Source: Shigella phage phi25-307. From it: a DNA stretch of 64,000 nucleotides. Made by a program: the position numbers and the translations under genes. Shown in pieces: positions 3,789 through 56,420 of this stretch. Below the pieces are notes generated by a model that saw nothing but the letters and a program-made list of their open reading frames with translations, did not search any database and was not told the origin of the DNA. The stretch lies in sequence record MG589383. One strand, written 5' to 3'. The first letter of the stretch is position 1; the number at the start of each line of letters is the position of its first letter.

Positions 3789-4337
3789 TTAACGAGCCCA
3801 TTTGATAATTTCTGTAATCAAATAATTACGTTCGCTTGCATTAAATCCTATAACTTTGTTAGCACCGTCATGATTAAGTAATTGATACGTTTGGATTTTG
3901 TTATGAATTGCAAACTCTTCAAAATATGAAATGACTGTATTAAAACCGAATGAAGACAAAGTAATAAGATCGTCTTCAAAACTTTCAGTCATTTCGTTAC
4001 GTGTTAAAATAATTGTGAACACATCATGGTTTTGGCAAAGACGAACATAATCCTGTTCATAAACGTCAAGAACCGAGTCCGCATCTTGTCGAATACGTCC
4101 ATAAACCCAGTTACTAATATATCCACGGTCTAACAGATAAATCTTAGTAGGGTCTAAATAATTCAACATCGTTTCGAAACAGCCAACTTCATTTCGAGAC
4201 TTAACATCGAAACGTCCATTAACTGTTCGTTTAGGGAAATCAATCTTTACATATCTTTCACTAATTTCCATTATGTCATTAATGAAAGTTGTTTTACCAG
4301 CATTATCCGGGCCATCTACTAAAATAATTTTAGCCAT
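3789..4337 (-). CDS. P-loop kinase-like protein (nucleoside/nucleotide kinase fold)
   Basis: Walker A VDGPDNAGKTT near N-terminus; 182 aa; sits at the T4 bgt locus. Confidence 0.6.
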   Translation of the reverse strand: MAKIILVDGPDNAGKTTFINDIMEISERYVKIDFPKRTVNGRFDVKSRNEVGCFETMLNYLDPTKIYLLDRGYISNWVYGRIRQDADSVLDVYEQDYVRLCQNHDVFTIILTRNEMTESFEDDLITLSSFGFNTVISYFEEFAIHNKIQTYQLLNHDGANKVIGFNASERNYLITEIIKWAR

Positions 4338-4338
4338 T

Positions 4339-5238
4339 TTATTCCTCGATTACGACATCTTCGTATTTAGGTATATTATACGGTGAAGAAATTAAAGCAT
4401 TAAAGTAGATGAACTCACCAAGACCTGGATGGAATACTTCTTCAGGATTTTCGAAATATTGAATCTTCGGTCGTCCTTTAAGAATTTGATAGTACTCAGT
4501 TTTAGTTGGTTTAAAAATTCGAATCAGCGCTTCTTCAGGATACTTATTTCTGTCGAAGCTATTATTTGGATCGGTTATATAAAGCGGTTGACCTAATTGA
4601 ATTGCACATTCAACCACTTGTTCAAAACGATAGCACGGGTCACTAATTCGAAATGGATGAAAAATACCATCTAGATGAATAGGAGCCAAATCACCTACAA
4701 GACGCTGCATGATGGAAGGACGTATAACTTTCTGGGTTACGATAATCTTATTACCATCGGCACCAGCGTTAACCAGCACTTCCTTTTGACGTTTATTCAA
4801 CACAGTAGTTTGAAGTGAACGATTAACCGACAACATATCGGTTTTTAAGAATTCGTCAATATAAAAACGTGGTTTATTAGGGTCTGCAGTGATATTGAAA
4901 TTGAATTCCACATCAAAAGCGCCGTCATATCCAGTGATATCTGTGATTAGAAAATCACAATCATAATAAGCAATTAATGAATCAACCACAAATTCATTTT
5001 CAGACCAGAAATATTTACGAGTGTTATACGCGTTATCTTTATACCATAATGGAACAAACTTAAATTCTGGGAAAAGACGTTCACATTCTTTAATATCAGA
5101 TGCATTACGTGGATATGTAATCACATCACCCGGATTAGCACGGTGCAAATGAAGTTGGAAGTTGCCATCCTTAAGGATAGCGTACTGTCCAGTTTCATAA
5201 GACCGCATACTCAAGATAGGTACGCGGAAAATAGCCAT
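4339..5238 (-). CDS. hypothetical protein at bgt locus; candidate DNA sugar transferase
   Basis: 299 aa ORF; start overlaps gene 42 stop as TAATG; no known motif, function inferred from position only. Confidence 0.55.
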   Translation of the reverse strand: MAIFRVPILSMRSYETGQYAILKDGNFQLHLHRANPGDVITYPRNASDIKECERLFPEFKFVPLWYKDNAYNTRKYFWSENEFVVDSLIAYYDCDFLITDITGYDGAFDVEFNFNITADPNKPRFYIDEFLKTDMLSVNRSLQTTVLNKRQKEVLVNAGADGNKIIVTQKVIRPSIMQRLVGDLAPIHLDGIFHPFRISDPCYRFEQVVECAIQLGQPLYITDPNNSFDRNKYPEEALIRIFKPTKTEYYQILKGRPKIQYFENPEEVFHPGLGEFIYFNALISSPYNIPKYEDVVIEE

Positions 5239-5954
5239 TAGTCAAGGAATCCTTTAACATAATCAAAATCACGTTCAAACACATGGGCACTTACCATGGT
5301 ATGAGTATAATCACCAACTTCTACACCGCATTCGTTAGCGATATAATGAAGTAATTTTCCTTGGAGATAAAAATCCAACTGCATAACAACAGCACAGTTC
5401 TGAGAACGCATATGACAGTGGGTATAAAGCTTACCATCACGAATATAATAAGTCACTGAGTCAGTACATGGATATTCAAGCGTTTCGTCTGAATCAAGCA
5501 AAGCCTGATCAGAACTTTCTAGAATTTGGAACACAACTCTTCGAGAGTTAGGCTTCTCTTTAAGTTCTTTTAGAAGAGCTGGTAATTGGGCCACAATGCG
5601 AGGACCATAGAAAGTGTTGAAGTTCGCCGGCAAAACATCTGATTTTGGTTTAGAAATAAATTTAGCGACATTAGGATATGCCTTAAACGCTTCTTCTGCG
5701 TTGGTACCACCAGAAATCATAAACTTCCAGAAGTCTTCGGCATATTCATAAGAGATGCGGTTAATACGTGGGTCGGTCATTTTGAATGTTGACGGGGTAT
5801 CAACAACTACTGTCATAGACCCAATTTCATTACAACGTCCAATACGAGAATCAGTTACGAATTCCGGGTTTTCTAAAATTTCACGATTGACTGCTTTAAA
5901 TGCGGTTTGAAAATCTGCGGCTTTGATATATTTCATTGTGTTATGTTTTCCCAT
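5238..5954 (-). CDS. 42: dCMP hydroxymethylase (thymidylate synthase superfamily)
   Basis: 238 aa; C-T-D-S-V-x-Y-Y-IRDGK...MRSQN...HVF pattern matches T4 gp42 catalytic region; RBS GAGGTAAAC. Confidence 0.8.
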   Translation of the reverse strand: MGKHNTMKYIKAADFQTAFKAVNREILENPEFVTDSRIGRCNEIGSMTVVVDTPSTFKMTDPRINRISYEYAEDFWKFMISGGTNAEEAFKAYPNVAKFISKPKSDVLPANFNTFYGPRIVAQLPALLKELKEKPNSRRVVFQILESSDQALLDSDETLEYPCTDSVTYYIRDGKLYTHCHMRSQNCAVVMQLDFYLQGKLLHYIANECGVEVGDYTHTMVSAHVFERDFDYVKGFLD

Positions 5955-5973
5955 GTTTACCTCAATACAATTT

Positions 5974-5998
5974 ATTATATACTCAATTCGTAAAGCTT
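5974..5998 (-). promoter_or_regulatory. middle (MotA-type) promoter candidate upstream of gene 42
   Basis: minus strand AAGCTTTAC - 11 nt - TATAAT. Confidence 0.35.
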
Positions 5999-6233
5999 AT
6001 TTGAATTTCTTGACAATGTTGATATAACGTAAAGCTTCAGCATCGATACTTCCAAGAACACTATGAAGAAATGCATCAGCGTAGTATTCCAATTGAACAG
6101 GTTTCTTTAATCACTTTAGCCGCTTTAGTTTCAAACAGGCCCATCAGGGCCTTTTTAAGAATTTGTTCATTAGTGTTCAGTTTCATAGTCAAAATCTCTT
6201 CATTAAGTTGGTGGTTAAAAGTTTTTCTAGAAA

Positions 6234-7394
6234 TCATTCCGGGTACCTCAAAGCGTCATCAGAGTTAGTTATATCAATAATAGATATAGAGTTTTCTGCT
6301 AACCCATTTTTAGATAACTGACGTTTATAATATCTTTCACAATATGTACACGTCGTCCCGCAGATTTCATTAGCACAATCGAAATCTGGATGTCTGAACC
6401 ACCTTTTTTCTAAAAAGCCATCTAACAAAGAGGTTTCAATATTTACTGTATGTGAAAACTCAGTTTCATTTTCAAGAGTGAAAATAGTCTCTAAAGGCTT
6501 CCACAGTTCTAACAAATTACCTTCAAACTTTTCAGAAGCGTATGCTTCAAGAACTTTCAAAATGTAGTCTGTGCTACCTGTACGTCCTGAAACTTTGAAT
6601 TGAGTGATACCAATATCATTATAAAGTTTCAAATCTTGAGGACGAACAAAACGAGTTCTCAGCCAGTTAAATGGGTCTGTATCACGAGCTTTAATGCAGT
6701 GTTGCATTGGATATCCATTTAAGGATTTAGCATCATCAGCTGTAACATCAGTACTATGGAAAATATAGCAAGAGTCACGATAGCTACAATGTGTTGTATA
6801 CCCTTTACCAGCATTAGAACAGAACTCATTTACAAGAACTTCAAATATTATATTGTTCTTATTGCAAAACTCTGCTGCACGCTTCAGGAAAGAAACTGAA
6901 CGGTTCTTATGAATTCCACAGCAGACCTTTTTGATATTATACTGGTCATGCAAGTATTTGATTTGAGTTACAGCATCGACATGTAGAATTGTTGAAACTT
7001 CAATCTCAATGTCTTTATTGACTTCACGAACAATTTCCATAACAACAGGGTTAGCGATAGTAATACGCCATACGCCTATTGACCAAAGATACTGAACATA
7101 ATCCTGAATAGCTTTCTTCTTCCACTCAACTAGTTCTCTTTTTGAACCAGGATTTATCGTGTTGAGTGTATAGTTAAAGCAAATACCTAATTCGTTACAA
7201 CGTTTAACGTAATCTTCTAACATCTTTTTGTCAACGTCAGGAAGCCTAAAATCAGGTCTGGCTGCTACAAAAGCCATTTCTCTTGTAGAGCCGTATACTT
7301 CGTTTATCAAGCTATTAGGATAAGTTTTATTGAGCTCTACGATTTTATCAAGAAGAGCTAAATCAAAATTCGTTCCGATTTTAAAAGTATTCAT
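6234..7394 (-). CDS. hypothetical Cys-rich protein (386 aa) at imm locus
   Basis: long ORF; C-terminal cysteine cluster CANEICGTTCTYC; possible metal or Fe-S binding enzyme. Confidence 0.6.
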   Translation of the reverse strand: MNTFKIGTNFDLALLDKIVELNKTYPNSLINEVYGSTREMAFVAARPDFRLPDVDKKMLEDYVKRCNELGICFNYTLNTINPGSKRELVEWKKKAIQDYVQYLWSIGVWRITIANPVVMEIVREVNKDIEIEVSTILHVDAVTQIKYLHDQYNIKKVCCGIHKNRSVSFLKRAAEFCNKNNIIFEVLVNEFCSNAGKGYTTHCSYRDSCYIFHSTDVTADDAKSLNGYPMQHCIKARDTDPFNWLRTRFVRPQDLKLYNDIGITQFKVSGRTGSTDYILKVLEAYASEKFEGNLLELWKPLETIFTLENETEFSHTVNIETSLLDGFLEKRWFRHPDFDCANEICGTTCTYCERYYKRQLSKNGLAENSISIIDITNSDDALRYPE

Positions 7395-7453
7395 TTTTTA
7401 CATCTCGCGTTAATTGATGCGATGGTTTTTTTTTGCAGGTCTTACTTAAATTA

Positions 7454-7840
7454 TTATAGATTCGGTTTATATGATTTAAATGTTTCGAATTCGCCTTTAT
7501 TCATAAGAGCTTTGAATTCGTCAGGACGCATAGCTTTGTCGTCGATAATCCAATCATATACTGGTTTATGTGTTAGCAAATTATGGTACTTCAATCCAAT
7601 GTTTGCCAAGTTCTGAATCAGACTTGGGAGAATGTCAATTGCTATACGACCAGGACCTACTGACTTCATACCGCGAGCAGTGTAAAGCGTTATGGTATGC
7701 CCTGCATCATACAGGGCATTAATGGCAGACACCATTTCGACGTCTGGTTTGAAGTTCACGTAATCACGATTGTTATTCCACTCTGTTATACAATCATCGA
7801 CATCAAAACAAAGATTAAGCATGTTTTTTACACGGTGCAT
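7454..7840 (-). CDS. HAD-superfamily phosphatase-like protein
   Basis: FDVDDC (DxD nucleophile motif), LYTARG, conserved K, WIIDDK; ATG overlaps upstream stop as TAATG. Confidence 0.55.
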   Translation of the reverse strand: MHRVKNMLNLCFDVDDCITEWNNNRDYVNFKPDVEMVSAINALYDAGHTITLYTARGMKSVGPGRIAIDILPSLIQNLANIGLKYHNLLTHKPVYDWIIDDKAMRPDEFKALMNKGEFETFKSYKPNL

Positions 7841-9525
7841 TAGATTCGTTCCCATTGATGAGTGATATCGCCACCGATTGGACGATAAGAAACACCAGTT
7901 TCTTTATCAGTTAGTACCCATTTACCAGGATTTTTTGTAATCAGAGTAGCCGTTACAGGTTCTGCTACATCATAACTAATAGTGCCGTCCTGAAGTACAC
8001 GGCCCATATTACGTAATTGCTTAGTCAGAAGTTCCATACCTTTATAATATGCGGCTACCGCTTTAAGTGGATTATTCTTGAAATAACCACCTAATGCAAT
8101 CCAGATAATTGCTACAGCCAAATGATGATACTCATTAAACGAACTCATCTTTCCATATTTGTAAACTAATGGATTGATGTTAATAGTCACATTACAAGTT
8201 GTTTCATCAATAGTAAACTGTCCCCAGGTCGGATTAGCATTGAATTCATCATAACCTGAAACAGCATAAAGCACTTTAGCTTCATCATACAATTTTGGCC
8301 CGTAAATCTTGGTTTCACCAAAATATCCACGAGGGTCGATAAACTTGACTTCACCATTATCAGTAATCATAGTATTACTGAAGTTTGGGTCACCATGAAT
8401 AACAGAGTACTGTCCCTGAGAACGGTTATGATAACGAATAAGGTGTTCTAAAGCTTGTTTCAGCATTGGCTTCAGACGCCCAATCTTAGTGTAGTTCACA
8501 TGTGTGATTTTACCGAATGAATCAATCAATGGTTGAATACTTTCACAACGATCAATAACTTTCGTATAGAACTCTTTAGTGAAATCACGGCGAACAGTTT
8601 CAGGACTTACAAAATAAGTGTCTGTGCTGAATTTCAGTGCATCTAAAATTGCATCAACAATTTGTGGACGAGCAAGACTTGATTTGGATTTAATATATTC
8701 AAATGCCGGCTTACCTTTAATGCGTTCCATTTCAAAGTTATTTTCATTAACAGAAACTAACTGAGGAACTGAATCTGATTTCACTTTAAGATACCATGAA
8801 ATCTCATCTTTCTGAAGAGCTCGACCCTGTTCGGTTAATGCGAATTTAGTTACAGTTTCTTCACCAATTTCAACTGCATTAAAACTACGATTAAGTTCAC
8901 GAACTTCATGAGCTTTTTCAAGTTTAGGCATATCACCTAAATCAATTAGATTCATAAGCTCTGATTTATTGAATGCGCTGCCGTAAAGGAATTCTACGAA
9001 ATCACGTCCTTTGCAGTATTCATGAATTTCCTCATCAGTAGAACCCATATAGAATTCCCAGTCTTTGAACTGATAAATTCCTACAACATTACCACCTGTT
9101 GAACCTACATTAGTGATATTTTCACCGTCGAAATTATATCGACATTCGTCACCCTTAACATAGATTGCGTTAACATTCCAAGACCATGAACCAAAATCAG
9201 GAATAATATCACACCAGTTAACAATTACATTATGGCCGTCTAAATCTTTGTGTAATTTAGCAAGAGCATAAGCAGAACCATACGCTTCATCAACTGTACG
9301 AATAGTCACATTGAACCCTTCTTGCTCACAATAAGCTCGAACAGTTTCAGCAAATTTTGAATGAACTACTACAATAATTTCATCTGCACCAAGGTCAGAA
9401 TAAATTGTATACAAATTGCTCAGAATAGTGTCTTGTTTATAGTTAACAAGCACCTTAGGAATATGATGTGTTATTGGATACAAACGAGTTGCCAGTCCAG
9501 CACCAAGAATAACAGCTTTTTTCAT
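7840..9525 (-). CDS. bifunctional sugar-1-phosphate nucleotidyltransferase / sugar kinase
   Basis: N-terminus ILGAGLATRLYPIT..IPK (GxGTRLxPxT NTase signature); C-terminus HGDPNFSNTMI...FIDPRG (APH/choline-kinase Brenner motif). Confidence 0.85.
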   Translation of the reverse strand: MKKAVILGAGLATRLYPITHHIPKVLVNYKQDTILSNLYTIYSDLGADEIIVVVHSKFAETVRAYCEQEGFNVTIRTVDEAYGSAYALAKLHKDLDGHNVIVNWCDIIPDFGSWSWNVNAIYVKGDECRYNFDGENITNVGSTGGNVVGIYQFKDWEFYMGSTDEEIHEYCKGRDFVEFLYGSAFNKSELMNLIDLGDMPKLEKAHEVRELNRSFNAVEIGEETVTKFALTEQGRALQKDEISWYLKVKSDSVPQLVSVNENNFEMERIKGKPAFEYIKSKSSLARPQIVDAILDALKFSTDTYFVSPETVRRDFTKEFYTKVIDRCESIQPLIDSFGKITHVNYTKIGRLKPMLKQALEHLIRYHNRSQGQYSVIHGDPNFSNTMITDNGEVKFIDPRGYFGETKIYGPKLYDEAKVLYAVSGYDEFNANPTWGQFTIDETTCNVTININPLVYKYGKMSSFNEYHHLAVAIIWIALGGYFKNNPLKAVAAYYKGMELLTKQLRNMGRVLQDGTISYDVAEPVTATLITKNPGKWVLTDKETGVSYRPIGGDITHQWERI

Positions 9526-9706
9526 GTTGTGGTCCTCATTGGTAAGTAGGAGTATTGTACACTATTCTAGTTAAAGCATTCATACTTTGCTTGTAGTCCA
9601 ATCATAATCCATCCAATTACAAGTGTTGGAATCATTACCGGAGCCGTTAAGCTCCAGTAGATAGTCATGACAAGCATCAATAGTAAAAGTCCTATTGTTA
9701 TTGCTT

Positions 9707-10342
9707 TCATTGTTCGCCTCGTAACATGGCACCTAGTGCACCGCCAGGGTGGAACTTAAGGAAGTCATTAGAGGTAAATCCACGTTCAGACGAAAGGTTG
9801 ATAGCAAACGTATCGATAAGCGCTAACAACAATGTAGTGGACATAGTCGGAGCCAGAGAATTCTCATCAACCTCTACTGCGATGCCTGTACAGAAAGAGT
9901 AATCAAAAAGGGCTTCATTTTCTTGTGGAATGTCTGGGTTACAATGCAACAGAATCTGTTTGACGTTCGGACGAATCATTTTAAGATGCTTAGCCACACC
10001 TATCATTTCTTCAGTTTTACCAGAACGACTAATATGAATCAACACATCATTAGGCGCAATGAATCCTGCATCACCGTGAGAATAATGCCCGGTGTTCAAG
10101 TACATACTCGGGATACCGAGTGAAGCAAATGTCTCAGAAGCTTTAGTTGCAATATTAGCATTCTTACCAACACCTGTAATAATTACTCGGCTTTCATAAT
10201 TACTAAGTCCCGGACGTCGAAGAGTTTCTAGAATAGCATTATAACGAGCAGGGTTTTGACTAATTACTTTGGCCATAGCGGCCAAAGAAGAAGATTGTTT
10301 TATGATTGCGTCAATAGCGATAGTAATAGGAGTAGTTTTCAT
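9707..10342 (-). CDS. SIS-domain arabinose-5-phosphate isomerase (KdsD/GutQ family)
   Basis: ITGVGKNANIATKASETFASLGIPS...HGDAG...ISRSGKTEE...HPGGALG aligns to KdsD SIS core. Confidence 0.85.
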   Translation of the reverse strand: MKTTPITIAIDAIIKQSSSLAAMAKVISQNPARYNAILETLRRPGLSNYESRVIITGVGKNANIATKASETFASLGIPSMYLNTGHYSHGDAGFIAPNDVLIHISRSGKTEEMIGVAKHLKMIRPNVKQILLHCNPDIPQENEALFDYSFCTGIAVEVDENSLAPTMSTTLLLALIDTFAINLSSERGFTSNDFLKFHPGGALGAMLRGEQ

Positions 10343-43632: not shown

Positions 43633-43962
43633 TTATACTCTAGGCTTTTGAGCTTGTTTGGTATTGGATTCCCATGCGGCTTTGGTAATTTTGTTAGCGG
43701 CATAACCAAAGGCACTAGATAGAACACCTTTAGAGTTGAATACATCCAATCCAATAAGTACACCTGCTGTGTTAAATTTAGGAGCAAAGTACGCATTAGT
43801 TTTAGAAAGAGCTTTTTTCAATTCAGGGTCTTGAACCAAGCCATCAAAAACGCCTTTACCATTTACTTTATATGTTACTTTGGGATTTTTAGCTTCTTCG
43901 ATAGCAGCTTTCTGTTCCGCAGATAATGTAACTTCAGTGATAAACTCTTGATATGTTTTCAT
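43633..43962 (-). CDS. internal-protein-like capsid-targeted protein (CTS MKTYQEFITE)
   Basis: N-terminal MKTYQEFITE capsid targeting sequence; ATG at 43962. Confidence 0.6.
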   Translation of the reverse strand: MKTYQEFITEVTLSAEQKAAIEEAKNPKVTYKVNGKGVFDGLVQDPELKKALSKTNAYFAPKFNTAGVLIGLDVFNSKGVLSSAFGYAANKITKAAWESNTKQAQKPRV

Positions 43963-44075
43963 TTTGTTCTCTCTAGGTTTAGACCATTCCATGGCCCATG
44001 AATTGTCCATTTTCCGTATTTACCACTCCAAGTAATTATGAATATACTATCACAATTCTAGGAGAAAGTAAACTG

Positions 44076-44378
44076 TTATTTACCTTTAATTACTTTAGCT
44101 GCTTCGATAGCCGCTTGCTGAAGGTCGTCCATAGACATACCGAATTTAGAAGCAAAGTTATCAATTTTCTTTTCGACCGCATTCAAAGGCTTGGCCTGTT
44201 TACCTTCATTAGCGCCTGGAAGAGCGAGAATACGCTCTTTGTCAATATAAAGGCTTACAAGTTTCTTACGGTCTTTATCGGACAAATCATGAAATGAATG
44301 GGCCTTTTTATTTATAGCGGCTTCTAATTTACCTGCACTCACTCGAGCTTCAGTAATAAATTCTTGATATGTTTTCAT
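44076..44378 (-). CDS. ipII: internal protein, IPII-like (CTS MKTYQEFITE)
   Basis: CTS leader; 100 aa, size as T4 IPII. Confidence 0.55.
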   Translation of the reverse strand: MKTYQEFITEARVSAGKLEAAINKKAHSFHDLSDKDRKKLVSLYIDKERILALPGANEGKQAKPLNAVEKKIDNFASKFGMSMDDLQQAAIEAAKVIKGK

Positions 44379-44419
44379 ATGTTTCCTTTAAATGTAAATA
44401 GGCCTAAGTACAGGCCTTA

Positions 44420-44998
44420 TTAATTACCACGGGCTGCATTAGCAACGGCATAAGCGTACTGAACATTAGCGTCTTTAAACGTACCTTTAGAGGTATCTAT
44501 TTCTGCCTTAAAGCCGCCTTTAGCCATAACATCAGCAAATTCTTTACGGAAAGCCATTGCGTCAAGACCTTTCCATGATGATTTGTGCTTGGCGAATTCA
44601 AGACCAGCGTAGTTGACAGCCTTAGCTAATTTATTATCAATAACCCATTTACCGGCTTTAGGCACAAACTTCGGTCCTTTTTGTTTAGAGAACAGTTTTA
44701 AATTCCAGCGACGAAGATCACTGTCGGCTTTAACAAAAGCTGCATCTAAGTTACTAGCAACAACATCTTCAATATGAGCAAATTTAAGTCCGTCAACTTC
44801 AATATTTAGGTCGGTACGCCAGCGAAGTCCTTCCCAAGCGAAAGCTTTAAAGTCGGAAGCTTTTGTAGCTAAGTATCGTTCAAGTGGAGCAGTTTTAGGG
44901 TCAAAGCCGTTTCCACCACGATAAGTCCACTCGTCCTTATTAATGCCTTGAGCTTTTCCTGCAAAGGCCTCGGCGATAAATTCTTTATATGTTTTCAT
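44420..44998 (-). CDS. ipIII: internal protein, IPIII-like (CTS MKTYKEFIAE)
   Basis: CTS leader; 192 aa, size as T4 IPIII. Confidence 0.55.
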   Translation of the reverse strand: MKTYKEFIAEAFAGKAQGINKDEWTYRGGNGFDPKTAPLERYLATKASDFKAFAWEGLRWRTDLNIEVDGLKFAHIEDVVASNLDAAFVKADSDLRRWNLKLFSKQKGPKFVPKAGKWVIDNKLAKAVNYAGLEFAKHKSSWKGLDAMAFRKEFADVMAKGGFKAEIDTSKGTFKDANVQYAYAVANAARGN

Positions 44999-45024
44999 TT
45001 TTGTTCCTATTGTTTTAATTCATG

Positions 45025-45339
45025 TTATTCTTTAGGGAAGTTTTTAGAGTATGCGTCATAAAGTTTATTGCCGATGCGACGGAAGACTCTAGCTGCAAAA
45101 CGGTTTTCAGGGTTTTTAATCATGATTTGCATCATGTAAGTTCCTGCATCCGAAAGAGCTTCTTCATAGTACCCATTAATTTCTTTAAGAGTCCTACGTT
45201 TACCACCAGGACCATCAACAGTAATTTTCCATTTACCTGTAGAAGTGCGGCTCGGTGGCTCAACTTGTTCAATCCAAATATAACCACCTTCAACGCGTTG
45301 ATTGGCGGATTCTGCAATAAATTCTTTATACGTTTTCAT
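45025..45339 (-). CDS. internal-protein-like capsid-targeted protein (CTS MKTYKEFIAE)
   Basis: CTS leader; 104 aa; own early promoter. Confidence 0.6.
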   Translation of the reverse strand: MKTYKEFIAESANQRVEGGYIWIEQVEPPSRTSTGKWKITVDGPGGKRRTLKEINGYYEEALSDAGTYMMQIMIKNPENRFAARVFRRIGNKLYDAYSKNFPKE

Positions 45340-45369
45340 TTTTGTTTCCTTGTTTGTTTTGATAGAGTA

Positions 45370-45399
45370 ATTATACCATATTAATACTTAAGCGTAAAC
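45370..45399 (-). promoter_or_regulatory. early promoter (GTTTAC-18-TATAAT)
   Basis: gtaattatacca ... gtaaac. Confidence 0.5.
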
Positions 45400-45402
45400 T
45401 GT

Positions 45403-45663
45403 TTAAGCTTTACCGCCAGAAATAATTCCGAAGTTGTTAAAATCATATCCAATATCGTCAACATCTACTTTAGGGCTTGCTACAACATAAGCAATTTCAC
45501 CACGTTTTGCATAGGTGTTGATTTCTTTACCATCGCCGCCTAGGAAAGAATACCCATTACGTTTTAATGAGCCAAAGTCTTCCGCATCACCAATGAAAGC
45601 TTTAACTTTAAATTTATGACCTTCGGCATCTGCTTCAGCGATAAATTCTTGATACATTTTCAT
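45403..45663 (-). CDS. internal-protein-like capsid-targeted protein (CTS MKMYQEFIAE)
   Basis: CTS leader; 86 aa. Confidence 0.6.
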   Translation of the reverse strand: MKMYQEFIAEADAEGHKFKVKAFIGDAEDFGSLKRNGYSFLGGDGKEINTYAKRGEIAYVVASPKVDVDDIGYDFNNFGIISGGKA

Positions 45664-45669
45664 TTTTCC

Positions 45670-46083
45670 TTAGTAAATTGATTTACCATAGTATTTGTAC
45701 CAAGTAGGACGCTGAGCAATTTTTTCATCTAAGCGTGCTTGACTTATCGCAATGGACGCTTCGGACGGGACATAATTATTACGAAATTCGGCAGGGATGT
45801 CGGAAATATCCTGGACAGTCGTGTCCTTGATTTTGAAACCACGTTTCAAGCATTCAGCGATTAACTCGATTTGACGTAAACGTAAAAATTCGAGTTTGTC
45901 GTAAAAGAATGTTACATGACCTGTGCCTAAGATAAATGTTGGAGAGATTTTAAAATCCTTTACACGTTTACCGTTTTGAACATGTTTACGGACTGCACCA
46001 AATACACGTGGTAATTCACGATACTCGGCCATAAGATGTTGGTCGGTCAGTTCAGAAACAAGTGTTAAATTGATACGGGTCAT
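45670..46083 (-). CDS. denV: endonuclease V (pyrimidine-dimer DNA glycosylase)
   Basis: [34 protein letters not shown]... matches T4 DenV; ATG at 46083. Confidence 0.9.
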
Positions 46084-46110
46084 AATTTCCTCCAAGTAGT
46101 TGATGAATGT

Positions 46111-46140
46111 ATAGTATCAAAACCCTTGGAGGAAGTAAAC
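46111..46140 (-). promoter_or_regulatory. early promoter (GTTTAC-18-TACTAT) for denV
   Basis: gaatgtatagtatc ... gtaaac. Confidence 0.5.
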
Positions 46141-46141
46141 A

Positions 46142-46423
46142 CTATTTTTCTGAAGCGCCTGAAATATATTTTTCAAGACGTTGTTTCATCAACGAGCCGT
46201 TCTTAGCGATTTCTTCTGGTTTATCGCACATACGCAACAAGGCTTCAAGCTTAACGATATCACTGGTGCGCTCAAATTTGCGAGTATCTATCTTACTAGC
46301 AAGTTCAGAAATACGTGCTAATAGACTTTCAGCTTCAACCAAAGCTGCACCTAGCTTAGTTGCAAATGTGTCAGTAGCTTCGTTAAGAATAGATTCTGAT
46401 AAAAATTCACTATATGTTTTCAT
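46142..46423 (-). CDS. internal-protein-like capsid-targeted protein ([13 protein letters not shown])
   Basis: CTS leader at internal ATG 46423. Confidence 0.55.
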
Positions 46424-46908
46424 ATATACGCTTTCCAAGTTCCTGTTTTAAATGTCGAGATTACGCGTTTCGCGCGATTAGGTGTCTGACGATACCATTT
46501 AGATTGGGCTAGATTTACTGCCGCTTCGTCCCAACGTTTCTGTTGAAGCATACGAAGAGAATTAGTAAAACCAGCGACGCCTGCTACACCCATTTGGAAG
46601 ACCATATTGACCAATGCACATCGACGAACTGCATCTAAAGAATCATATACCGGTTTAAGTTTAGCATTACCCAAGATTCCGCGAACAGCTTTATCAACGT
46701 CTTCATTAAATAACTTTTCAGCCTCATCAAGGGTAATTGTACCGTTGCATTTACGTCCGATCATTCTGTCAAGTTCAGCTTTAGCTACGGCTAAAGACGG
46801 GTTCTTTGTTACTAAATGACCTATGCCAATCGTCCAAAAGCCTTCAGTGTCTTTGTATAAAGTCAGTCTAAGACCTTCGTCATTACGAAGCATTTCAAAT
46901 ATATTCAT
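46420..46908 (-). CDS. e: lysozyme (endolysin, T4 e)
   Basis: [27 protein letters not shown]... matches T4 lysozyme with catalytic E11/D20/T26 context. Confidence 0.95.
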
Positions 46909-46912
46909 AATA

Positions 46913-46932
46913 CCTCCCACGTTTATAGGAGG
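46913..46932 (-). promoter_or_regulatory. hairpin sequestering the lysozyme RBS, with a late-promoter-like TATAAACG in the loop
   Basis: minus strand CCTCC-TATAAACGT-GGGAGG-TATT-ATG. Confidence 0.45.
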
Positions 46933-46942
46933 TATTTATTAC

Positions 46943-47416
46943 TTATAGGATGGTAGTGAGCACCTTATATAATGATTTGCCCATTACATATTCCCATTGA
47001 GAAGGTTTAATTAAAGCGAATGCATCAAATTCAGGAATCTGTCGTCCGTCTGGGAATGTATGATAGGAATTACAAACACTGTTTCTGAATTGCTCGTGCT
47101 CTACAGGGATGGTATATAGGAACAGATGAATATTCTTATTGTCTGAGTAACGATGTTCACCTAGGTCTTTCAGGAAGGCAGGGTCATATTGTGTAAACCC
47201 AGTTTCTTCTTCGCATTCACGAATAGCTGCTTCAATAGGAGATTCACCGGGCTCGACACGACCTTTAGGAATATCCCACCGATGAGCTAAAGAACCTTTA
47301 GGACGAGAACCAGTTACACGCCCCATGAATAATTCTTTATCTTCGGTAAGGAAAATAATACCAGCTGATAGTTCTTTCACTTTATTTTTCTTACTCATCA
47401 TCTCAAATTCCTGCAT
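46943..47416 (-). CDS. nudE: Nudix hydrolase
   Basis: Nudix box GRVEPGESPIEAAIRECEEETG. Confidence 0.85.
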   Translation of the reverse strand: MQEFEMMSKKNKVKELSAGIIFLTEDKELFMGRVTGSRPKGSLAHRWDIPKGRVEPGESPIEAAIRECEEETGFTQYDPAFLKDLGEHRYSDNKNIHLFLYTIPVEHEQFRNSVCNSYHTFPDGRQIPEFDAFALIKPSQWEYVMGKSLYKVLTTIL

Positions 47417-47796
47417 TCGGTAATAAAACGTTCAACTTCATTATTCTTGGCCTTTATCTTGTCTTTACGTTCCTGTAAACTACTTTTAACAAGATTAATA
47501 ATGATGCCTACAGTACCTCCACCAATTATACCACCAATAATACTTACGATAGTAGATGCTAATAAGATGGCGATAATATCTAGTACAGCAAAGGCACTTA
47601 CTTTAGTACTAAAAAACCATATAGACGGTACAAATATAATCCATCCTGTTATCCATTGGCACTTATTGAAAAACCTTTCAAGCTCAGCTTGAGTTGTTCG
47701 TATTACTTCATCAATAGGTTGATATCCATTAATGTATCTGTTCACGATAATACCTGCTGGCTGGTCGATTTTAAATTCTTGGCAAATATGTTTCAC
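47398..47796 (-). CDS. membrane protein (132 aa)
   Basis: multiple hydrophobic helices. Confidence 0.5.
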   Translation of the reverse strand: MKHICQEFKIDQPAGIIVNRYINGYQPIDEVIRTTQAELERFFNKCQWITGWIIFVPSIWFFSTKVSAFAVLDIIAILLASTIVSIIGGIIGGGTVGIIINLVKSSLQERKDKIKAKNNEVERFITECRNLR

Positions 47797-47867: not shown

Positions 47868-48173
47868 TTATTTTCCTCGACATTCTTTAATGAAATTTTC
47901 TAGATTGGTAGATTCAATAGCTTTTTTACGAGCTTCTGCGTGTTCTTCTTCAGACAATTTACATTTATAATTGACCCAGACATTATGGTCGAAACTAGTC
48001 GTGGCATATAATAACAATGCTCCAACGAATAGCAAAAACGGTGATAAGAATACAAAACCAGGAACACCATCCATATCGTAAGCCTTTTGTAATACTGCAA
48101 CAGAAAGAGCTGCGTAAAAAGGTGATGCAAATATTGTTAAAAGACCAATTCGGTTGGTTTCGCCTAATTTCAT
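47868..48173 (-). CDS. membrane protein (101 aa)
   Basis: hydrophobic helices. Confidence 0.5.
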   Translation of the reverse strand: MKLGETNRIGLLTIFASPFYAALSVAVLQKAYDMDGVPGFVFLSPFLLFVGALLLYATTSFDHNVWVNYKCKLSEEEHAEARKKAIESTNLENFIKECRGK

Positions 48174-50019: not shown

Positions 50020-50325
50020 TTAGCACAACGCAGAAGACGAAACCCAAGCACCTTCAGTAATAACGTAACCGTTACCTTCACGCTTAACATCGCCACCATT
50101 ATTTTCAATTTCATCTTTCATCCACTGGGATACGATTTCACCCTTAGGATAATAAGTACGACCGCTACCATAATCACCTACAGAAAATGATACGGCATAT
50201 TGGTCTGCGATCTTTGTTGCTTCTTCTTCGATACGTTCAGCTTGATTCAGAAGTTTATAAATTGCATCTGAAGCGGATTCGGCATCATTAAACTCTGGTA
50301 CTTTAATTTCAATAATCTTACTCAT
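50020..50325 (-). CDS. hypothetical protein (101 aa), paralog of the previous ORF
   Basis: tandem duplicate. Confidence 0.5.
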   Translation of the reverse strand: MSKIIEIKVPEFNDAESASDAIYKLLNQAERIEEEATKIADQYAVSFSVGDYGSGRTYYPKGEIVSQWMKDEIENNGGDVKREGNGYVITEGAWVSSSALC

Positions 50326-50681
50326 TTTCTACATTCCTTAATAAAGTTTTCGATTGTTTCATTTTCACGTCTAGCTAGGAGTTCATTATAACTAATCATT
50401 TGAGAAGCGTAAATCTTTTTATTTTTCTTGTTATGGTTTATAAAATCGTAGTAAAAATAGACTACAGTACAAAATGATGCGATGGATGCAAAGGCTTGGG
50501 TATACCGTAAGTCCTGCCATTGGTCTGTGAATCCACCAGTGTTCCCTATAAATCCTAACACAACGCCGTCAATAAGAAATCCGACTAATCCAAAGGCAAA
50601 TCCCATGCCAATACTCATAATAAAAATTAGAATGTTCTCGCCAAGAGAAGGCCATACGGTTAAGAGTTGAGGCTTTTGCAT
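50322..50681 (-). CDS. membrane protein (119 aa)
   Basis: hydrophobic helices. Confidence 0.45.
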   Translation of the reverse strand: MQKPQLLTVWPSLGENILIFIMSIGMGFAFGLVGFLIDGVVLGFIGNTGGFTDQWQDLRYTQAFASIASFCTVVYFYYDFINHNKKNKKIYASQMISYNELLARRENETIENFIKECRK

Positions 50682-51085
50682 CTTATCTCCTTAACGAATT
50701 CCATAGCTTCTTCATATTCATACTTTTTAACAGCTTCATCATACTGAGCTTGGGCTTTTGCGCACTGAACTTTCCATTCTCTTAATCGGGCTCTGTGATG
50801 ACGTCCTTGGTACCAATATCCCACCCAGTTAATAGGCATTAATAAAAATGGTACAATAAACGACCCGGCTATAATAAGTAAAAACACTGCATCAGACGAT
50901 ATAACTTCACTAGAATCTAAAACAGCTCCTATAATCATAAAGATTAAAAATGCTAAAGCTAAAATAGGGCCAAATAGTACTTCGTTTGGGATTAATTTAC
51001 GCTTGTATTCATACGCCCAGGGCTTACTTGGCATGTATAGGGTTGGCTTTGACATATTCTCTACATTCCATAATAAATTGCTCAA
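50660..51085 (-). CDS. membrane protein (141 aa)
   Basis: hydrophobic helices. Confidence 0.45.
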   Translation of the reverse strand: MSNLLWNVENMSKPTLYMPSKPWAYEYKRKLIPNEVLFGPILALAFLIFMIIGAVLDSSEVISSDAVFLLIIAGSFIVPFLLMPINWVGYWYQGRHHRARLREWKVQCAKAQAQYDEAVKKYEYEEAMEFVKEIRCKSLNS

Positions 51086-51641
51086 GGATTAAATTGTTAG
51101 TGAAATTAGGACTAACAACCATGGTTTCATAAAGCGCATCAATAGCACTTAAAGCATCAGCTCTTTTAAGCAAAGGCTTGCCTTCATACATAGTTTCAGA
51201 ATCGACGATTAACGTAAAGTAATATTTTTTATTATCGACTAGAACTTCAGTATCGATATAAAACATGTTAGACCTTAAGAGCTTATCTCTAAAACCATAA
51301 TAATCTTCAGAGCGTTCGCTGATATAGTCCCGTTCAGTGTTTAAACAACAAACAGACCATGTAGGAGCAATGAAATCAGTGAATCTAATATCATGGTCTG
51401 CAACTAGTTTAGCAATAGCTCTGATATCATGAATCATAATACCTGGGGCTAATAAAGATTTTCGGTTATTTGCATATTCAGTTGTCTCATAAGAAGACGA
51501 CCAGTACCATTTACGTCCAGTTGCAACATATCGTAATGAATCAACTAAAGACGTAGGTGGATTTACCTTATTTCGGAACTCTTCGAACATTGAGTCAATA
51601 TCATTATTTTGGTTTCGCATGTTAACTCCTTTATTATCCAA
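51024..51641 (-). CDS. hypothetical protein (205 aa)
   Basis: ORF. Confidence 0.5.
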   Translation of the reverse strand: MDNKGVNMRNQNNDIDSMFEEFRNKVNPPTSLVDSLRYVATGRKWYWSSSYETTEYANNRKSLLAPGIMIHDIRAIAKLVADHDIRFTDFIAPTWSVCCLNTERDYISERSEDYYGFRDKLLRSNMFYIDTEVLVDNKKYYFTLIVDSETMYEGKPLLKRADALSAIDALYETMVVSPNFTNNLILEQFIMECREYVKANPIHAK

Positions 51642-54371: not shown

Positions 54372-54448
<77 letters not shown>

Positions 54449-54454
54449 AATATA

Positions 54455-54528
54455 TGACCCAGACCAGATTCGAACTGGTAACCTTTCCCTTATGAGGGGA
54501 CTGCTGCTAACCGTTGAGCTACAGGGCC
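54455..54528 (-). tRNA. tRNA with CAU anticodon (Ile-lysidine type or Met)
   Basis: manual fold: T-arm ACCAG-TTCGAAT-CTGGT, anticodon loop CTCATAA; acceptor has one U-U mismatch and the D-arm is atypical. Confidence 0.6.
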
Positions 54529-55982: not shown

Positions 55983-56011
55983 TTTATTCTCCTCAGTAGT
56001 TGATAGGGTAA

Positions 56012-56041
56012 TAGTATCACTACCCTATCTAAAAGTAAACG
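56012..56041 (-). promoter_or_regulatory. early promoter (GTTTAC-18-TACTAT)
   Basis: gggtaatagtatc ... gtaaac. Confidence 0.5.
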
Positions 56042-56051
56042 GTTTTATAAA

Positions 56052-56360
56052 CTATTTTATTCCGCGTGATGCAATCGTATTCTGCCGTTTAACGCCAGTT
56101 TGTTTAAAGTTATGATTGTCGAGTTGATCGGTACGAGCAACTCCAAACGATGATTTAATCTTAGCTTTAGATCCTTTAGTTATAGAAATAAACATCTCGG
56201 GAGCCCCTTTCTTAAAGTCCGAAGCAATTACTTCAACACCGTTCTTAGCAAGTGACCTCAGAATTGCTTCCGCATACTCATCATCAAGACCCGCTTGAGT
56301 ATGAATAACGAATGTCTTTGGTGCAGCTGCTTCACAGATAAATTCTTTGAAAGTTTTCAT
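56052..56360 (-). CDS. ipI: internal protein, IPI-like by position (CTS MKTFKEFICE)
   Basis: CTS leader; 102 aa; adjacent to the 57B homolog as ipI is in T4. Confidence 0.55.
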   Translation of the reverse strand: MKTFKEFICEAAAPKTFVIHTQAGLDDEYAEAILRSLAKNGVEVIASDFKKGAPEMFISITKGSKAKIKSSFGVARTDQLDNHNFKQTGVKRQNTIASRGIK

Positions 56361-56390: not shown

Positions 56391-56420
56391 ACTATAACAT
56401 AGTCCTATCAGCATGTAAAC
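56391..56420 (-). promoter_or_regulatory. early promoter (GTTTAC-18-TATAGT)
   Basis: ggactactataaca ... gtaaac. Confidence 0.5.

Follow-up and report, generated by a model that had tools for sequence, protein, structure and literature searches.

Seven genes with T4-type capsid-targeting leaders in the Mosigvirus phi25-307: probable injected anti-defence proteins in a set assembled by cassette turnover

The window analysed here comprises 64,000 nucleotides of Shigella phage phi25-307 (MG589383), a Mosigvirus (RB69-like phage) that carries the RB69 cytosine-arabinosylation gene cluster; this bears out an earlier note, made from the sequence alone, in which the phage was taken to have arabinosylated DNA. 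Seven minus-strand open reading frames (ORFs) begin with MK(T/M)(Y/F)xEF(I/L)xE, and all seven lie where that note had placed them. Scanning all six frames of the 64 kb window by regex returns exactly these seven and none further, and the DNA pattern ATGAARAYNTWYNNNGARTTY has 7 matches compared with 0.01 expected from dinucleotide-preserving shuffles. Both classical internal protein (IP) loci are occupied: genes A to F are grouped around denV, in the interval bounded by vs.8 and e, and gene G lies directly downstream of 57B/57A, in the 57B–tRNA locus. The genes and the repeats and promoters associated with them are as follows.

43633..43962, minus strand: IP gene A, 109 aa, leader MKTYQEFITE, RB69ORF123c type
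44076..44378, minus strand: IP gene B, orthologue of IPII (Ip2), 100 aa
44420..44998, minus strand: IP gene C, orthologue of IPIII (Ip3), 192 aa
45025..45339, minus strand: IP gene D, Ip10 type, 104 aa
45403..45663, minus strand: IP gene E, RB69ORF125c type, 86 aa
46142..46423, minus strand: IP gene F, RB69ORF127c type, 93 aa
56052..56360, minus strand: IP gene G, Ip7 type, 102 aa
43930..46434, minus strand: ~44-nt repeat in six dispersed copies, leader-coding sequence plus ribosome site (independent repeat search)
43930-43973, 44346-44389 and 44966-45009, minus strand: copies of the ~44-nt repeat (repeat search)
45307-45350, 45631-45674 and 46391-46434, minus strand: further copies of the ~44-nt repeat (repeat search)
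44044..44073, minus strand: T4-early-type promoter GTTTAC-N-TAGTAT between B and A (regex scan)
45370..45399, minus strand: T4-early-type promoter GTTTAC...TGGTATAAT between E and D (regex scan)
56391..56420, minus strand: early promoter plus stem-loop (PeSL-like) upstream of G (regex scan)
56011-56040: second copy of the PeSL-like element, downstream of G (sequence scan)

The capsid-targeting sequence (CTS) of T4 internal proteins is about 10 residues long and matches MKTYQEFIAE; the (I/L)-x-E site of the prohead protease gp21 ends at residue 10, where Asp blocks cleavage. The common leader MKTY(K/Q)EFIxE given in the earlier note is exact for A to D only, and E (MKMYQEFIAE), G (MKTFKEFICE) and F deviate from it, F while retaining the mapped positions. 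Those positions are nevertheless kept in all seven leaders, with Tyr or Phe at position 4 and Phe7, as is the gp21 motif (Ile or Leu at position 8 and Glu10, followed by A, S or V at P1'). The aromatic residue at position 4 and Phe7 are the mapped targeting determinants of the CTS in the account of Mullaney & Black's work that is given in PMC9026906. Mean pairwise nucleotide identity among the seven genes is 80% over the 30-nt leader and 29% over the next 60 nt. Conserved leader residues vary in synonymous codons (ACA/ACG/ACT, GAA/GAG, ATC/ATT), which points to selection on the leader as a peptide. With the leader kept and both loci occupied, assignment of the set to T4-type capsid-targeting internal proteins is upheld, and PHROGs labels five of the seven as internal head or virion proteins. 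Five of the mature forms are rich in lysine and have a basic pI of 9.6–9.9, and those of E and F are acidic or neutral.

Behind the leader, the cargo bodies have no detectable mutual similarity, as had been claimed: no pair in an all-vs-all BLASTP without leaders falls below E = 0.38, and an hhalign comparison of the E and G families yields a probability of 0.15%. PHROGs hints at hidden paralogy between A and D (phrog_3966) and between E and G (phrog_2667), which leaderless BLASTP does not reproduce; the E/G suggestion from a shared phrog_2667 meets only the low profile alignment probability above, and a WG01 protein that could have served as an intermediate between A and D matches A alone (A and D were compared by leaderless BLASTP and through this intermediate). 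None of the seven proteins scores over curated thresholds in Pfam, NCBIfam or PADLOC, PDB sequence searches with G and C give no match, and published virion proteomics was sought for Mosigvirus IPs with no useful result.

The earlier note linked the set to T4 IPI, IPII and IPIII, and the link is direct for two of the three. Protein B is 93% identical to T4 IPII over 100/100 residues (E = 4e-68; 93.6% at the nucleotide level) and matches phrog_7857 over its full length, and C is 92.7% identical to T4 IPIII over 192 residues (E = 3e-134; 89% at the nucleotide level) and matches phrog_5341 (E = 3e-117). IPI has no orthologue in the window, where its best match (E = 0.016) covers the leader alone; G occupies the T4 ipI position with a body unrelated to IPI. 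Among the other genes, A (mature form ~10.6 kDa, pI 9.7) is 97% identical to RB69ORF123c, occurs in 89 phage records, nearly all from Mosigvirus, matches phrog_3966 and has just 2 clusters among 5.8 bn proteins. Some gene callers choose an in-frame ATG upstream at 44010 for A, and ribosome-site spacing favours the MKTY start over it. Protein D occurs in 188 records and is 97.9% identical to the product of a gene of Tequatrovirus PP01 annotated ‘Ip10 internal head protein’. Protein E, which has an acidic mature form (pI 5.2), is 92% identical to RB69ORF125c (‘internal head protein’) and occurs in 213 records; its AlphaFold2 model (pLDDT 45) is unusable. Protein F is a distant relative of Ip5/ipV (47%), occurs in 495 records, some of them annotated ipV or internal head protein, and matches phrog_3499; its start codon overlaps the stop of the lysozyme gene e (46420..46920) as ATGA. 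Protein G is 89% identical to CC31 ‘ip7’ and 64% identical to RB69ORF156c, and occurs in 282 records. The AlphaFold2 model of G (overall pLDDT 63) has a core at residues 12–70 predicted as beta-alpha-beta-beta-alpha, a generic ferredoxin-like arrangement (pLDDT 70–84). Foldseek searches with this model find no significant neighbour in PDB (best E 0.016), nor an IPI*-like one, and only the Ip7 family itself in BFVD. An HMMER search of 1.84 bn representatives with an Ip7 profile finds 3 clusters of the same family and no leaderless relatives. The same search also gave one repetitive 664-aa match, which is probably spurious.

Comparison with related phages places the set in context. The earlier note read seven genes as an expanded family, a reading that does not survive counts of leader genes in RB69 (six plus one with a scrambled leader), S143_2 (7) and mogra (6): seven is normal for the genus, and there is no expansion. 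The seven IP genes of RB69 are ORF123c, 124c, 125c, 127c, 149c, ipI and 156c; A, D, E and F are 92–99% identical to ORF123c, 124c, 125c and 127c, and RB69 has ipI and ORF149c without ipII/ipIII whereas the window has ipII/ipIII without ipI/ORF149c. RB69, the type species of the genus, has gp21, gp22, gp67 and gp68; these genes lie beyond the 64 kb window. Within the Ip4–Ip10 series (RB32, PP01, CC31), D corresponds to Ip10 and G to Ip7, and F is a relative of Ip5; the records consulted give no Ip number for A or E, which are named here by their RB69ORF123c and ORF125c types. The proteins resemble T4 IPI–III in leader, gp21 (I/L)xE site and the two loci, and also in being small with basic mature forms; B and C are direct orthologues. 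Differences from T4 are the missing IPI orthologue, the gene order (e-F-denV-E-D-ipIII-ipII-A in the window and e-ipIII-ipII-denV in T4, so that the ipIII-ipII pair lies on opposite sides of denV) and the phage DNA, which is arabinosylated here and glucosylated in T4.

Gene content changes between close relatives by entire cassettes, with junctions in 31–56 bp repeats that comprise leader, ribosome-site or early-promoter sequence. B is missing from S143_2, RB69 and phiC120, and D from phiC120 and mogra; gain/loss junctions relative to S143_2, RB69, phiC120 and mogra fall within the ~44-nt repeats, with overlaps of 31–40 bp. Near G, S143_2 carries an extra Ip9-like cassette compared with the window, with a junction overlap of 56 bp. 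Such differences fit recombinational shuffling. Sharing extends across genera: ipII retains its high nucleotide identity to T4 between flanks that are only 71–80% identical, and the Ip10 gene of PP01 is a further example. Early-promoter stem-loop (PeSL) elements have been described in PMC2839356 and PMC4122927 (Arbiol 2010; Comeau 2014). As in those cassettes, early-promoter and stem-loop repeats flank G and several boundaries lie at repeats; by contrast, most junctions in the denV cluster are not at a PeSL but within the leader-coding repeat. Cassettes of the Ip4–Ip10 series are likewise flanked by short direct repeats, and in the RB32 record 43-bp repeats surround Ip7 and Ip9. T4-early-type sites number 18 on the minus strand and 1 on the plus strand of the window by regex. 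Upstream of the IP genes no perfect match to the late promoter TATAAATA occurs, and its total count in the window is at chance level; T4 has two late promoters of this form upstream of e. Several of the IP genes stand behind early-type promoters, so that their expression in time for prohead assembly is presumed.

Proteins of this kind have been characterised functionally in T4. Ip2 and Ip3 were reported in 2025 as inhibitors of distinct GmrSD type IV restriction enzymes (PMC12373910): Ip2 inhibits GmrSD of ECOR21, which is of the BrxU type (PMC12373910), and the target inhibited by Ip3 is the two-gene GmrS1/GmrSD2 system found in ECOR17 (PMC9391042, PMC12373910). Each of T4 Ip1–3 has a specific GmrSD target in a strict one-to-one relationship (PMC12373910), that of Ip1 being GmrSD-CT596. 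For IPIII, leaderless protein expressed in the host has rescued a host-dependent plating defect. RB69 is itself restricted by GmrSD enzymes (PMC6024577). The anti-defence role proposed in the earlier note has thus been demonstrated by experiment in T4 for the orthologues of B and C; ip4–10, which include the Ip7 and Ip10 types, gave no reproducible inhibition among the GmrSD variants tried in 2025. Virion presence, processing and ejection have been established only for T4 IPI–III, which include the orthologues of B and C (PMC3012670, PMC9026906). The implied novelty of a diversified arsenal is not sustained: as summarised in PMC3012670 and PMC12373910, polymorphism of the IP loci, which hold over 10 Ips, was described by Repoila in 1994, and the concept of diverse injected defence proteins with the CTS alone in common dates from publications of 1994 and 2010. 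The gene set is therefore real and was correctly read, but it was already known.

It is highly probable that the seven genes encode T4-type injected internal proteins, that B and C are GmrSD inhibitors, that the rest are further inhibitors and that the set was built by cassette turnover. If homology to T4 is a guide, the first 10 residues would bind the scaffolding core and bring each protein into the prohead, where gp21 would cut after Glu10 of (I/L)-x-E. Mature proteins of 8–20 kDa would then sit among the head DNA, with ~1000 slots in common, and would be injected with the genome, so that they could act ahead of any phage gene expression. B and C would each neutralise one of two distinct GmrSD-family type IV enzymes directed against sugar-modified cytosine DNA, as their T4 orthologues do. 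A, D, E, F and G may be further single-target inhibitors of early-acting host defences, most likely of other type IV/GmrSD variants and less likely of other systems. Each gene is a module bounded by the 30-nt leader repeat and/or the early-promoter stem-loop repeat, as the whole-module differences between closely related phages, with junctions inside the repeats, show.

Other explanations fit parts of these observations. IPs could serve mainly within the capsid, where they would neutralise DNA as basic counter-ions, aid packaging or help the core or scaffold, with anti-defence activity as the exception. The five basic, lysine-rich mature forms are consistent with such a role, contacts between IP lysines and DNA phosphates are known from T4 heads (PMC3012670), and IPIII mutants have slower head assembly and a burst of ~40% of normal (PMC9026906). 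Yet T4 without all three IPs is viable (PMC9026906), E and F are acidic or neutral, all three T4 IPs have specific GmrSD targets, and the bodies are unrelated while single genes are gained and lost among genomes with >96% identity, a pattern typical of arms-race accessory genes rather than of structural parts; a mainly structural role is unlikely. It is still less likely that some of these leader ORFs are unpackaged, that the leader persists through recombination or gene conversion and that the proteins act only after synthesis in the infected cell. Early-type promoters before A, D and G, the lack of a consensus late promoter and the position of recombination junctions in leader DNA would agree with this, as would the RB69 copies of F and A, which are kept with damaged leaders: the leader of ORF127c is scrambled by a frameshift and that of RB69ORF123c has an E10A change, so packaging or cleavage may not be indispensable for F and A. 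In opposition, the four mapped positions are conserved with synonymous variation in all seven leaders, the first 10 residues of IPIII suffice to package foreign proteins (PMC9026906), and the leader precedes at least 49 unrelated bodies.

A third alternative concerns targets rather than delivery. A, D, E, F and G could be injected anti-defence proteins that act against non-GmrSD systems such as BREX, type I/III restriction-modification, arabinosyl-DNA nucleases or abortive-infection sensors. This was put forward in the earlier note, and it draws on the negative results for ip4–10 and on the charge of E and F, which is unlike the basic Ip1–3 type. Those negatives are weak evidence, since the GmrSD family is enormously diverse and only a few variants are involved; moreover, all three characterised members target the GmrSD family one-to-one, and none of the seven proteins resembles a known anti-defence or defence family in Pfam, NCBIfam, PADLOC, PDB or BFVD. 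Non-GmrSD targets for these five are a possibility that we consider rather doubtful, and injection of a mostly GmrSD-directed set is preferred. Tuning to arabinosylated DNA, which the earlier note also raised, is a separate matter: B, C and D are 93–98% identical to proteins of Tequatroviruses with glucosyl-hmC DNA, which argues against modification-specific tuning of these three.

Injected proteins are the sole phage weapons present ahead of phage gene expression, and so would decide the survival of modified-DNA phages under type IV restriction; they thereby bear on host range and on which phages are chosen for therapy. The value of the present set is practical rather than conceptual, in that it lists five leader-tagged candidates (A, D/Ip10, E, F and G/Ip7) in a phage with arabinosyl-DNA. 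By analogy only, P1 Dar, phiKZ/SPN3US inner-body proteins and the T7 core are likewise capsid-preloaded proteins active on arrival, and anti-CRISPR hotspots likewise gather non-homologous inhibitors in one genomic hotspot; these systems have no sequence relationship to the IPs and use other targeting signals. Tentatively, the 30-nt leader-coding sequence could encode a portable packaging tag and at the same time be the site of recombination in an integron-like array of cassettes that draws on a pool much larger than the ~10 recorded Ips, with acidic E and neutral F perhaps directed against non-GmrSD systems or an arabinosyl-specific GmrSD. An IMG/VR scan finds at least 49 unrelated cargo families behind the leader, some of them 300–600 aa long.

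Seven minus-strand genes in the window, A-G, encode proteins that open with the ~10-residue capsid targeting sequence (leader) of T4-type internal proteins (Ips); A-F lie around denV in the e-denV-vs.8 locus and G in the 57B-tRNA locus.

Leader-tagged genes of phi25-307, with closest relatives (identity) and numbers of matching records
A, 43633-43962, minus strand: 97% to RB69ORF123c; matched in 89 records, nearly all Mosigvirus
B, 44076-44378, minus strand: 93% to T4 IPII
C, 44420-44998, minus strand: 92.7% to T4 IPIII
D, 45025-45339, minus strand: 97.9% to a PP01 gene annotated Ip10; 188 records
E, 45403-45663, minus strand: 92% to RB69ORF125c; 213 records
F, 46142-46423, minus strand: RB69ORF127c type, 47% to Ip5/ipV; 495 records
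G, 56052-56360, minus strand: Ip7, 89% to CC31 ip7 and 64% to RB69ORF156c; 282 records

The earlier note placed six such reading frames in 43633-46423 and one at 56052-56360; all are real, and a regular-expression scan of six frames across the whole window found leaders in exactly these seven. DNA matches to ATGAARAYNTWYNNNGARTTY number seven against 0.01 expected from dinucleotide-preserving shuffles, and a repeat search independently found a six-copy 44-nt family spanning leader and ribosome site. Mean pairwise nucleotide identity drops from 80% across the 30-nt leader to 29% directly after it. The proposed pattern MKTY(K/Q)EFIxE is literal in A-D, while E (MKMY...), F and G (MKTFKEFICE) differ conservatively. 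In the mapping by Mullaney and Black, residues 4 and 7 determine targeting, and residues 8 and 10 determine processing (PMC9026906). Y/F4, F7, I/L8 and E10 are retained in all seven leaders, and codons for conserved residues differ synonymously among them, which together argue for selection on the leader peptide. Annotation of A-G as leader-tagged internal proteins is secure. By homology, the leader would direct the proteins into the scaffolding core, gp21 would cleave each after Glu10, and the mature protein would be injected together with the DNA; gp21, gp22, gp67 and gp68 are present in RB69 and located outside the window.

None of the seven proteins matches the IPI body, and G adjoins 57B/57A on the downstream side, the position of ipI in T4. 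F overlaps the stop codon of the lysozyme gene e. PHROGs calls five of the seven internal head or virion proteins; Pfam, NCBIfam and PADLOC scans of the seven gave no matches. Among the mature forms, five have basic pI values of 9.6-9.9 (A-D and G), E has an acidic one of 5.2, and F, at 6.3, is close to neutral. That the bodies are unrelated, as first proposed, stands at the sequence level: all-against-all BLASTP of leaderless proteins gave nothing below E = 0.38. PHROGs pairs A and D, and likewise E and G; profile comparison covered E and G, with shallow profiles, and gave no support for their kinship (hhalign of leaderless family alignments, probability 0.15%), and A and D were compared by BLASTP only. 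A relative of A at 37% identity (Dhakavirus WG01) provides no bridge to D. Structure prediction with AlphaFold2, suggested as a check, gave a moderate model of G and an unusable one of E. In the G model (overall pLDDT 63), residues 12-70 form a beta-alpha-beta-beta-alpha core (pLDDT 70-84), and both the leader and the basic, conserved C-terminal tail are disordered. Foldseek matches in the PDB were limited to generic ACT/RRM-like folds (best E = 0.016), and BFVD yielded nothing beyond Ip7 itself. An Ip7 HMMER profile recovered three clusters of the Ip7 family among 1.84 billion representatives; an additional 664-aa match is repetitive and probably spurious.

The seven genes had been described as an expanded set, a view that counts of leader genes within the syntenic region of each phage do not support. 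T4 has three, T6 two, RB32 four, mogra six, S143_2 seven, and RB69 six plus ORF127c with a scrambled leader, making seven; seven is thus the usual size in Mosigvirus. For 26 genome-sized IMG/VR contigs, of which partial stretches were covered, the counts are at least one to six. The leader of RB69 ORF127c (L004 9923-10204, homologue of window 46142-46423) reads MKTYMNFYQNLSLNE, unlike that of F, and looks like a compensated -1/+1 frameshift across ~30 nt, attributable either to an error in the 2003 reference sequence or to the targeting signal having truly been lost. Positions 8-10 of RB69 ORF123c read IAA in place of ITE. A leader-DNA scan of IMG/VR gave at least 120 stretches (L010-L129), which, pooled with reference loci, contain at least 198 leader reading frames (at least 162 unique) in at least 49 body families (single linkage, E < 1e-4, at least 50% of the shorter sequence), with the window's seven in seven different families. 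By comparison, Silas et al. (PMC12373910) put the Ips on record at 10 or more, a far smaller number. Some families are long, at 280-610 aa (282-610, 388 and 328 aa), and many lie on short environmental contigs.

The IP region shares 96-99% identity with Mosigvirus (RB69-like) phages, S143_2 matching best, and any single record covers at most 89% of the cluster. The window carries 385 bases that S143_2 lacks (43963-44347, gene B), with a 31-bp leader repeat at their bounds, and relative to RB69 it has B and C extra (43970-44972), with bounds of 33 bp. D is missing in phiC120 and mogra (40-bp overlap spanning leader and ribosome site), A is missing in mogra (49-bp overlap), and S143_2 carries an additional Ip9-like cassette at the ipI locus (56-bp overlap). 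DNA identity to T4 is 93.6% for ipII and 89% for ipIII (window 44043-45020 against T4 L003 3385-4440), whereas the flanks vs.6-8, denV, e and nudE reach only 71-80%; the ipII-ipIII pair lies on the opposite side of denV relative to T4. Ip10 (D) is 97.9% identical to a Tequatrovirus copy. On these identities, cassettes seem to move across genera with different DNA modifications, and the comparison with T4 suggests cross-genus transfer of ipII/ipIII despite the reported RB69-T4 recombination barrier.

The earlier note also proposed that the paralogs might be tuned to arabinosylated DNA. Its premise is supported by the window itself, which carries a counterpart of the entire RB69 gp45-gp55 cluster (3792-10342, minus strand, 98-100% amino acid identity), between uvsX and DNA polymerase gp43, with a nucleotide kinase, arabinosyltransferase gp46:47, dCMP hydroxylase gp48, sugar-nucleotide enzymes and an arabinose-5-P isomerase. 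Arabinosylated cytosine is the reported product of the RB69 cluster (PMC6024577; PMC13326640), with the base identified as 5-hydroxycytosine (PMC13326640), and the phage DNA thus very probably carries this modification. Tuning itself is disfavoured for B, C and D by the apparent cross-genus movement of cassettes, which predicts that the enzymes targeted by Ip2 and Ip3 attack arabinosylated DNA.

The idea of diverse injected defence proteins with only the leader in common already appears in Rao and Black (2010), citing Repoila et al. In experiments by Silas et al. (2025), Ip1, Ip2 and Ip3 each blocked a different GmrSD type IV enzyme and gave no cross-protection, and the authors proposed other Ips of both loci as inhibitors of GmrSD variants; ip4-10 gave no reproducible inhibition of the variants tested (PMC12373910). 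IPIII is needed on ECOR17, including when expressed without its leader (PMC9391042). The anti-defence reading is therefore the field's current view rather than a novelty; work on the T4 orthologues establishes it for B and C, and it is plausible for candidate factors A, D, E, F and G. Nothing in this analysis departs from published work. T4 virions hold 360-370 copies per IP (PMC9026906), and seven leader proteins would probably compete for core sites, lowering the dose of each. Dose could matter because wild-type T4 required extra Ip2 to overcome the ECOR21 enzyme (PMC12373910).

Early-type promoters (GTTTAC-N-TAnnAT) precede A, D, G and denV, and matches across the window number 18 on the minus strand versus one on the plus strand.

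T4-early-type promoters
56391-56420, minus strand
56011-56040, minus strand
46111-46140, minus strand
45370-45399, minus strand
44044-44073, minus strand

Some sit in short inverted repeats (e.g., AGGACTA...TAGTCCT, AGGGTA...TACCCT), and these copies resemble the PeSL elements described in the literature, which shuffle promoters and stem-loops. A search for consensus late promoters ahead of the IP genes in the window came up empty; T4, by contrast, carries two upstream of e. The sole perfect late-promoter box in the IP cluster, TATAAATA (44309-44316, minus strand), lies inside B, ~60 nt past its start, and is probably a chance occurrence because such boxes number 7 across the window, with 7.6 expected. 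The tRNA genes, tRNA-Arg (tct; 54372-54448, minus strand) and tRNA-Met (cat; 54455-54528, minus strand), form the reduced pair of RB69, unlike the eight of T4. Five small reading frames that lie between nudE and e.6, several predicted to encode membrane proteins, share the motif F(I/V)xE(C/I)R 1-11 residues ahead of the stop (e.g., ...NFIKECRK, ...RFITECRNLR).

Reading frames with F(I/V)xE(C/I)R
47398-47796, minus strand
47868-48173, minus strand
50322-50681, minus strand
50660-51085, minus strand
51024-51641, minus strand

The motif might be a protein tail common to the five or, because GAATGTAGG holds a ribosome-site-like AGG, a gene-junction DNA element.
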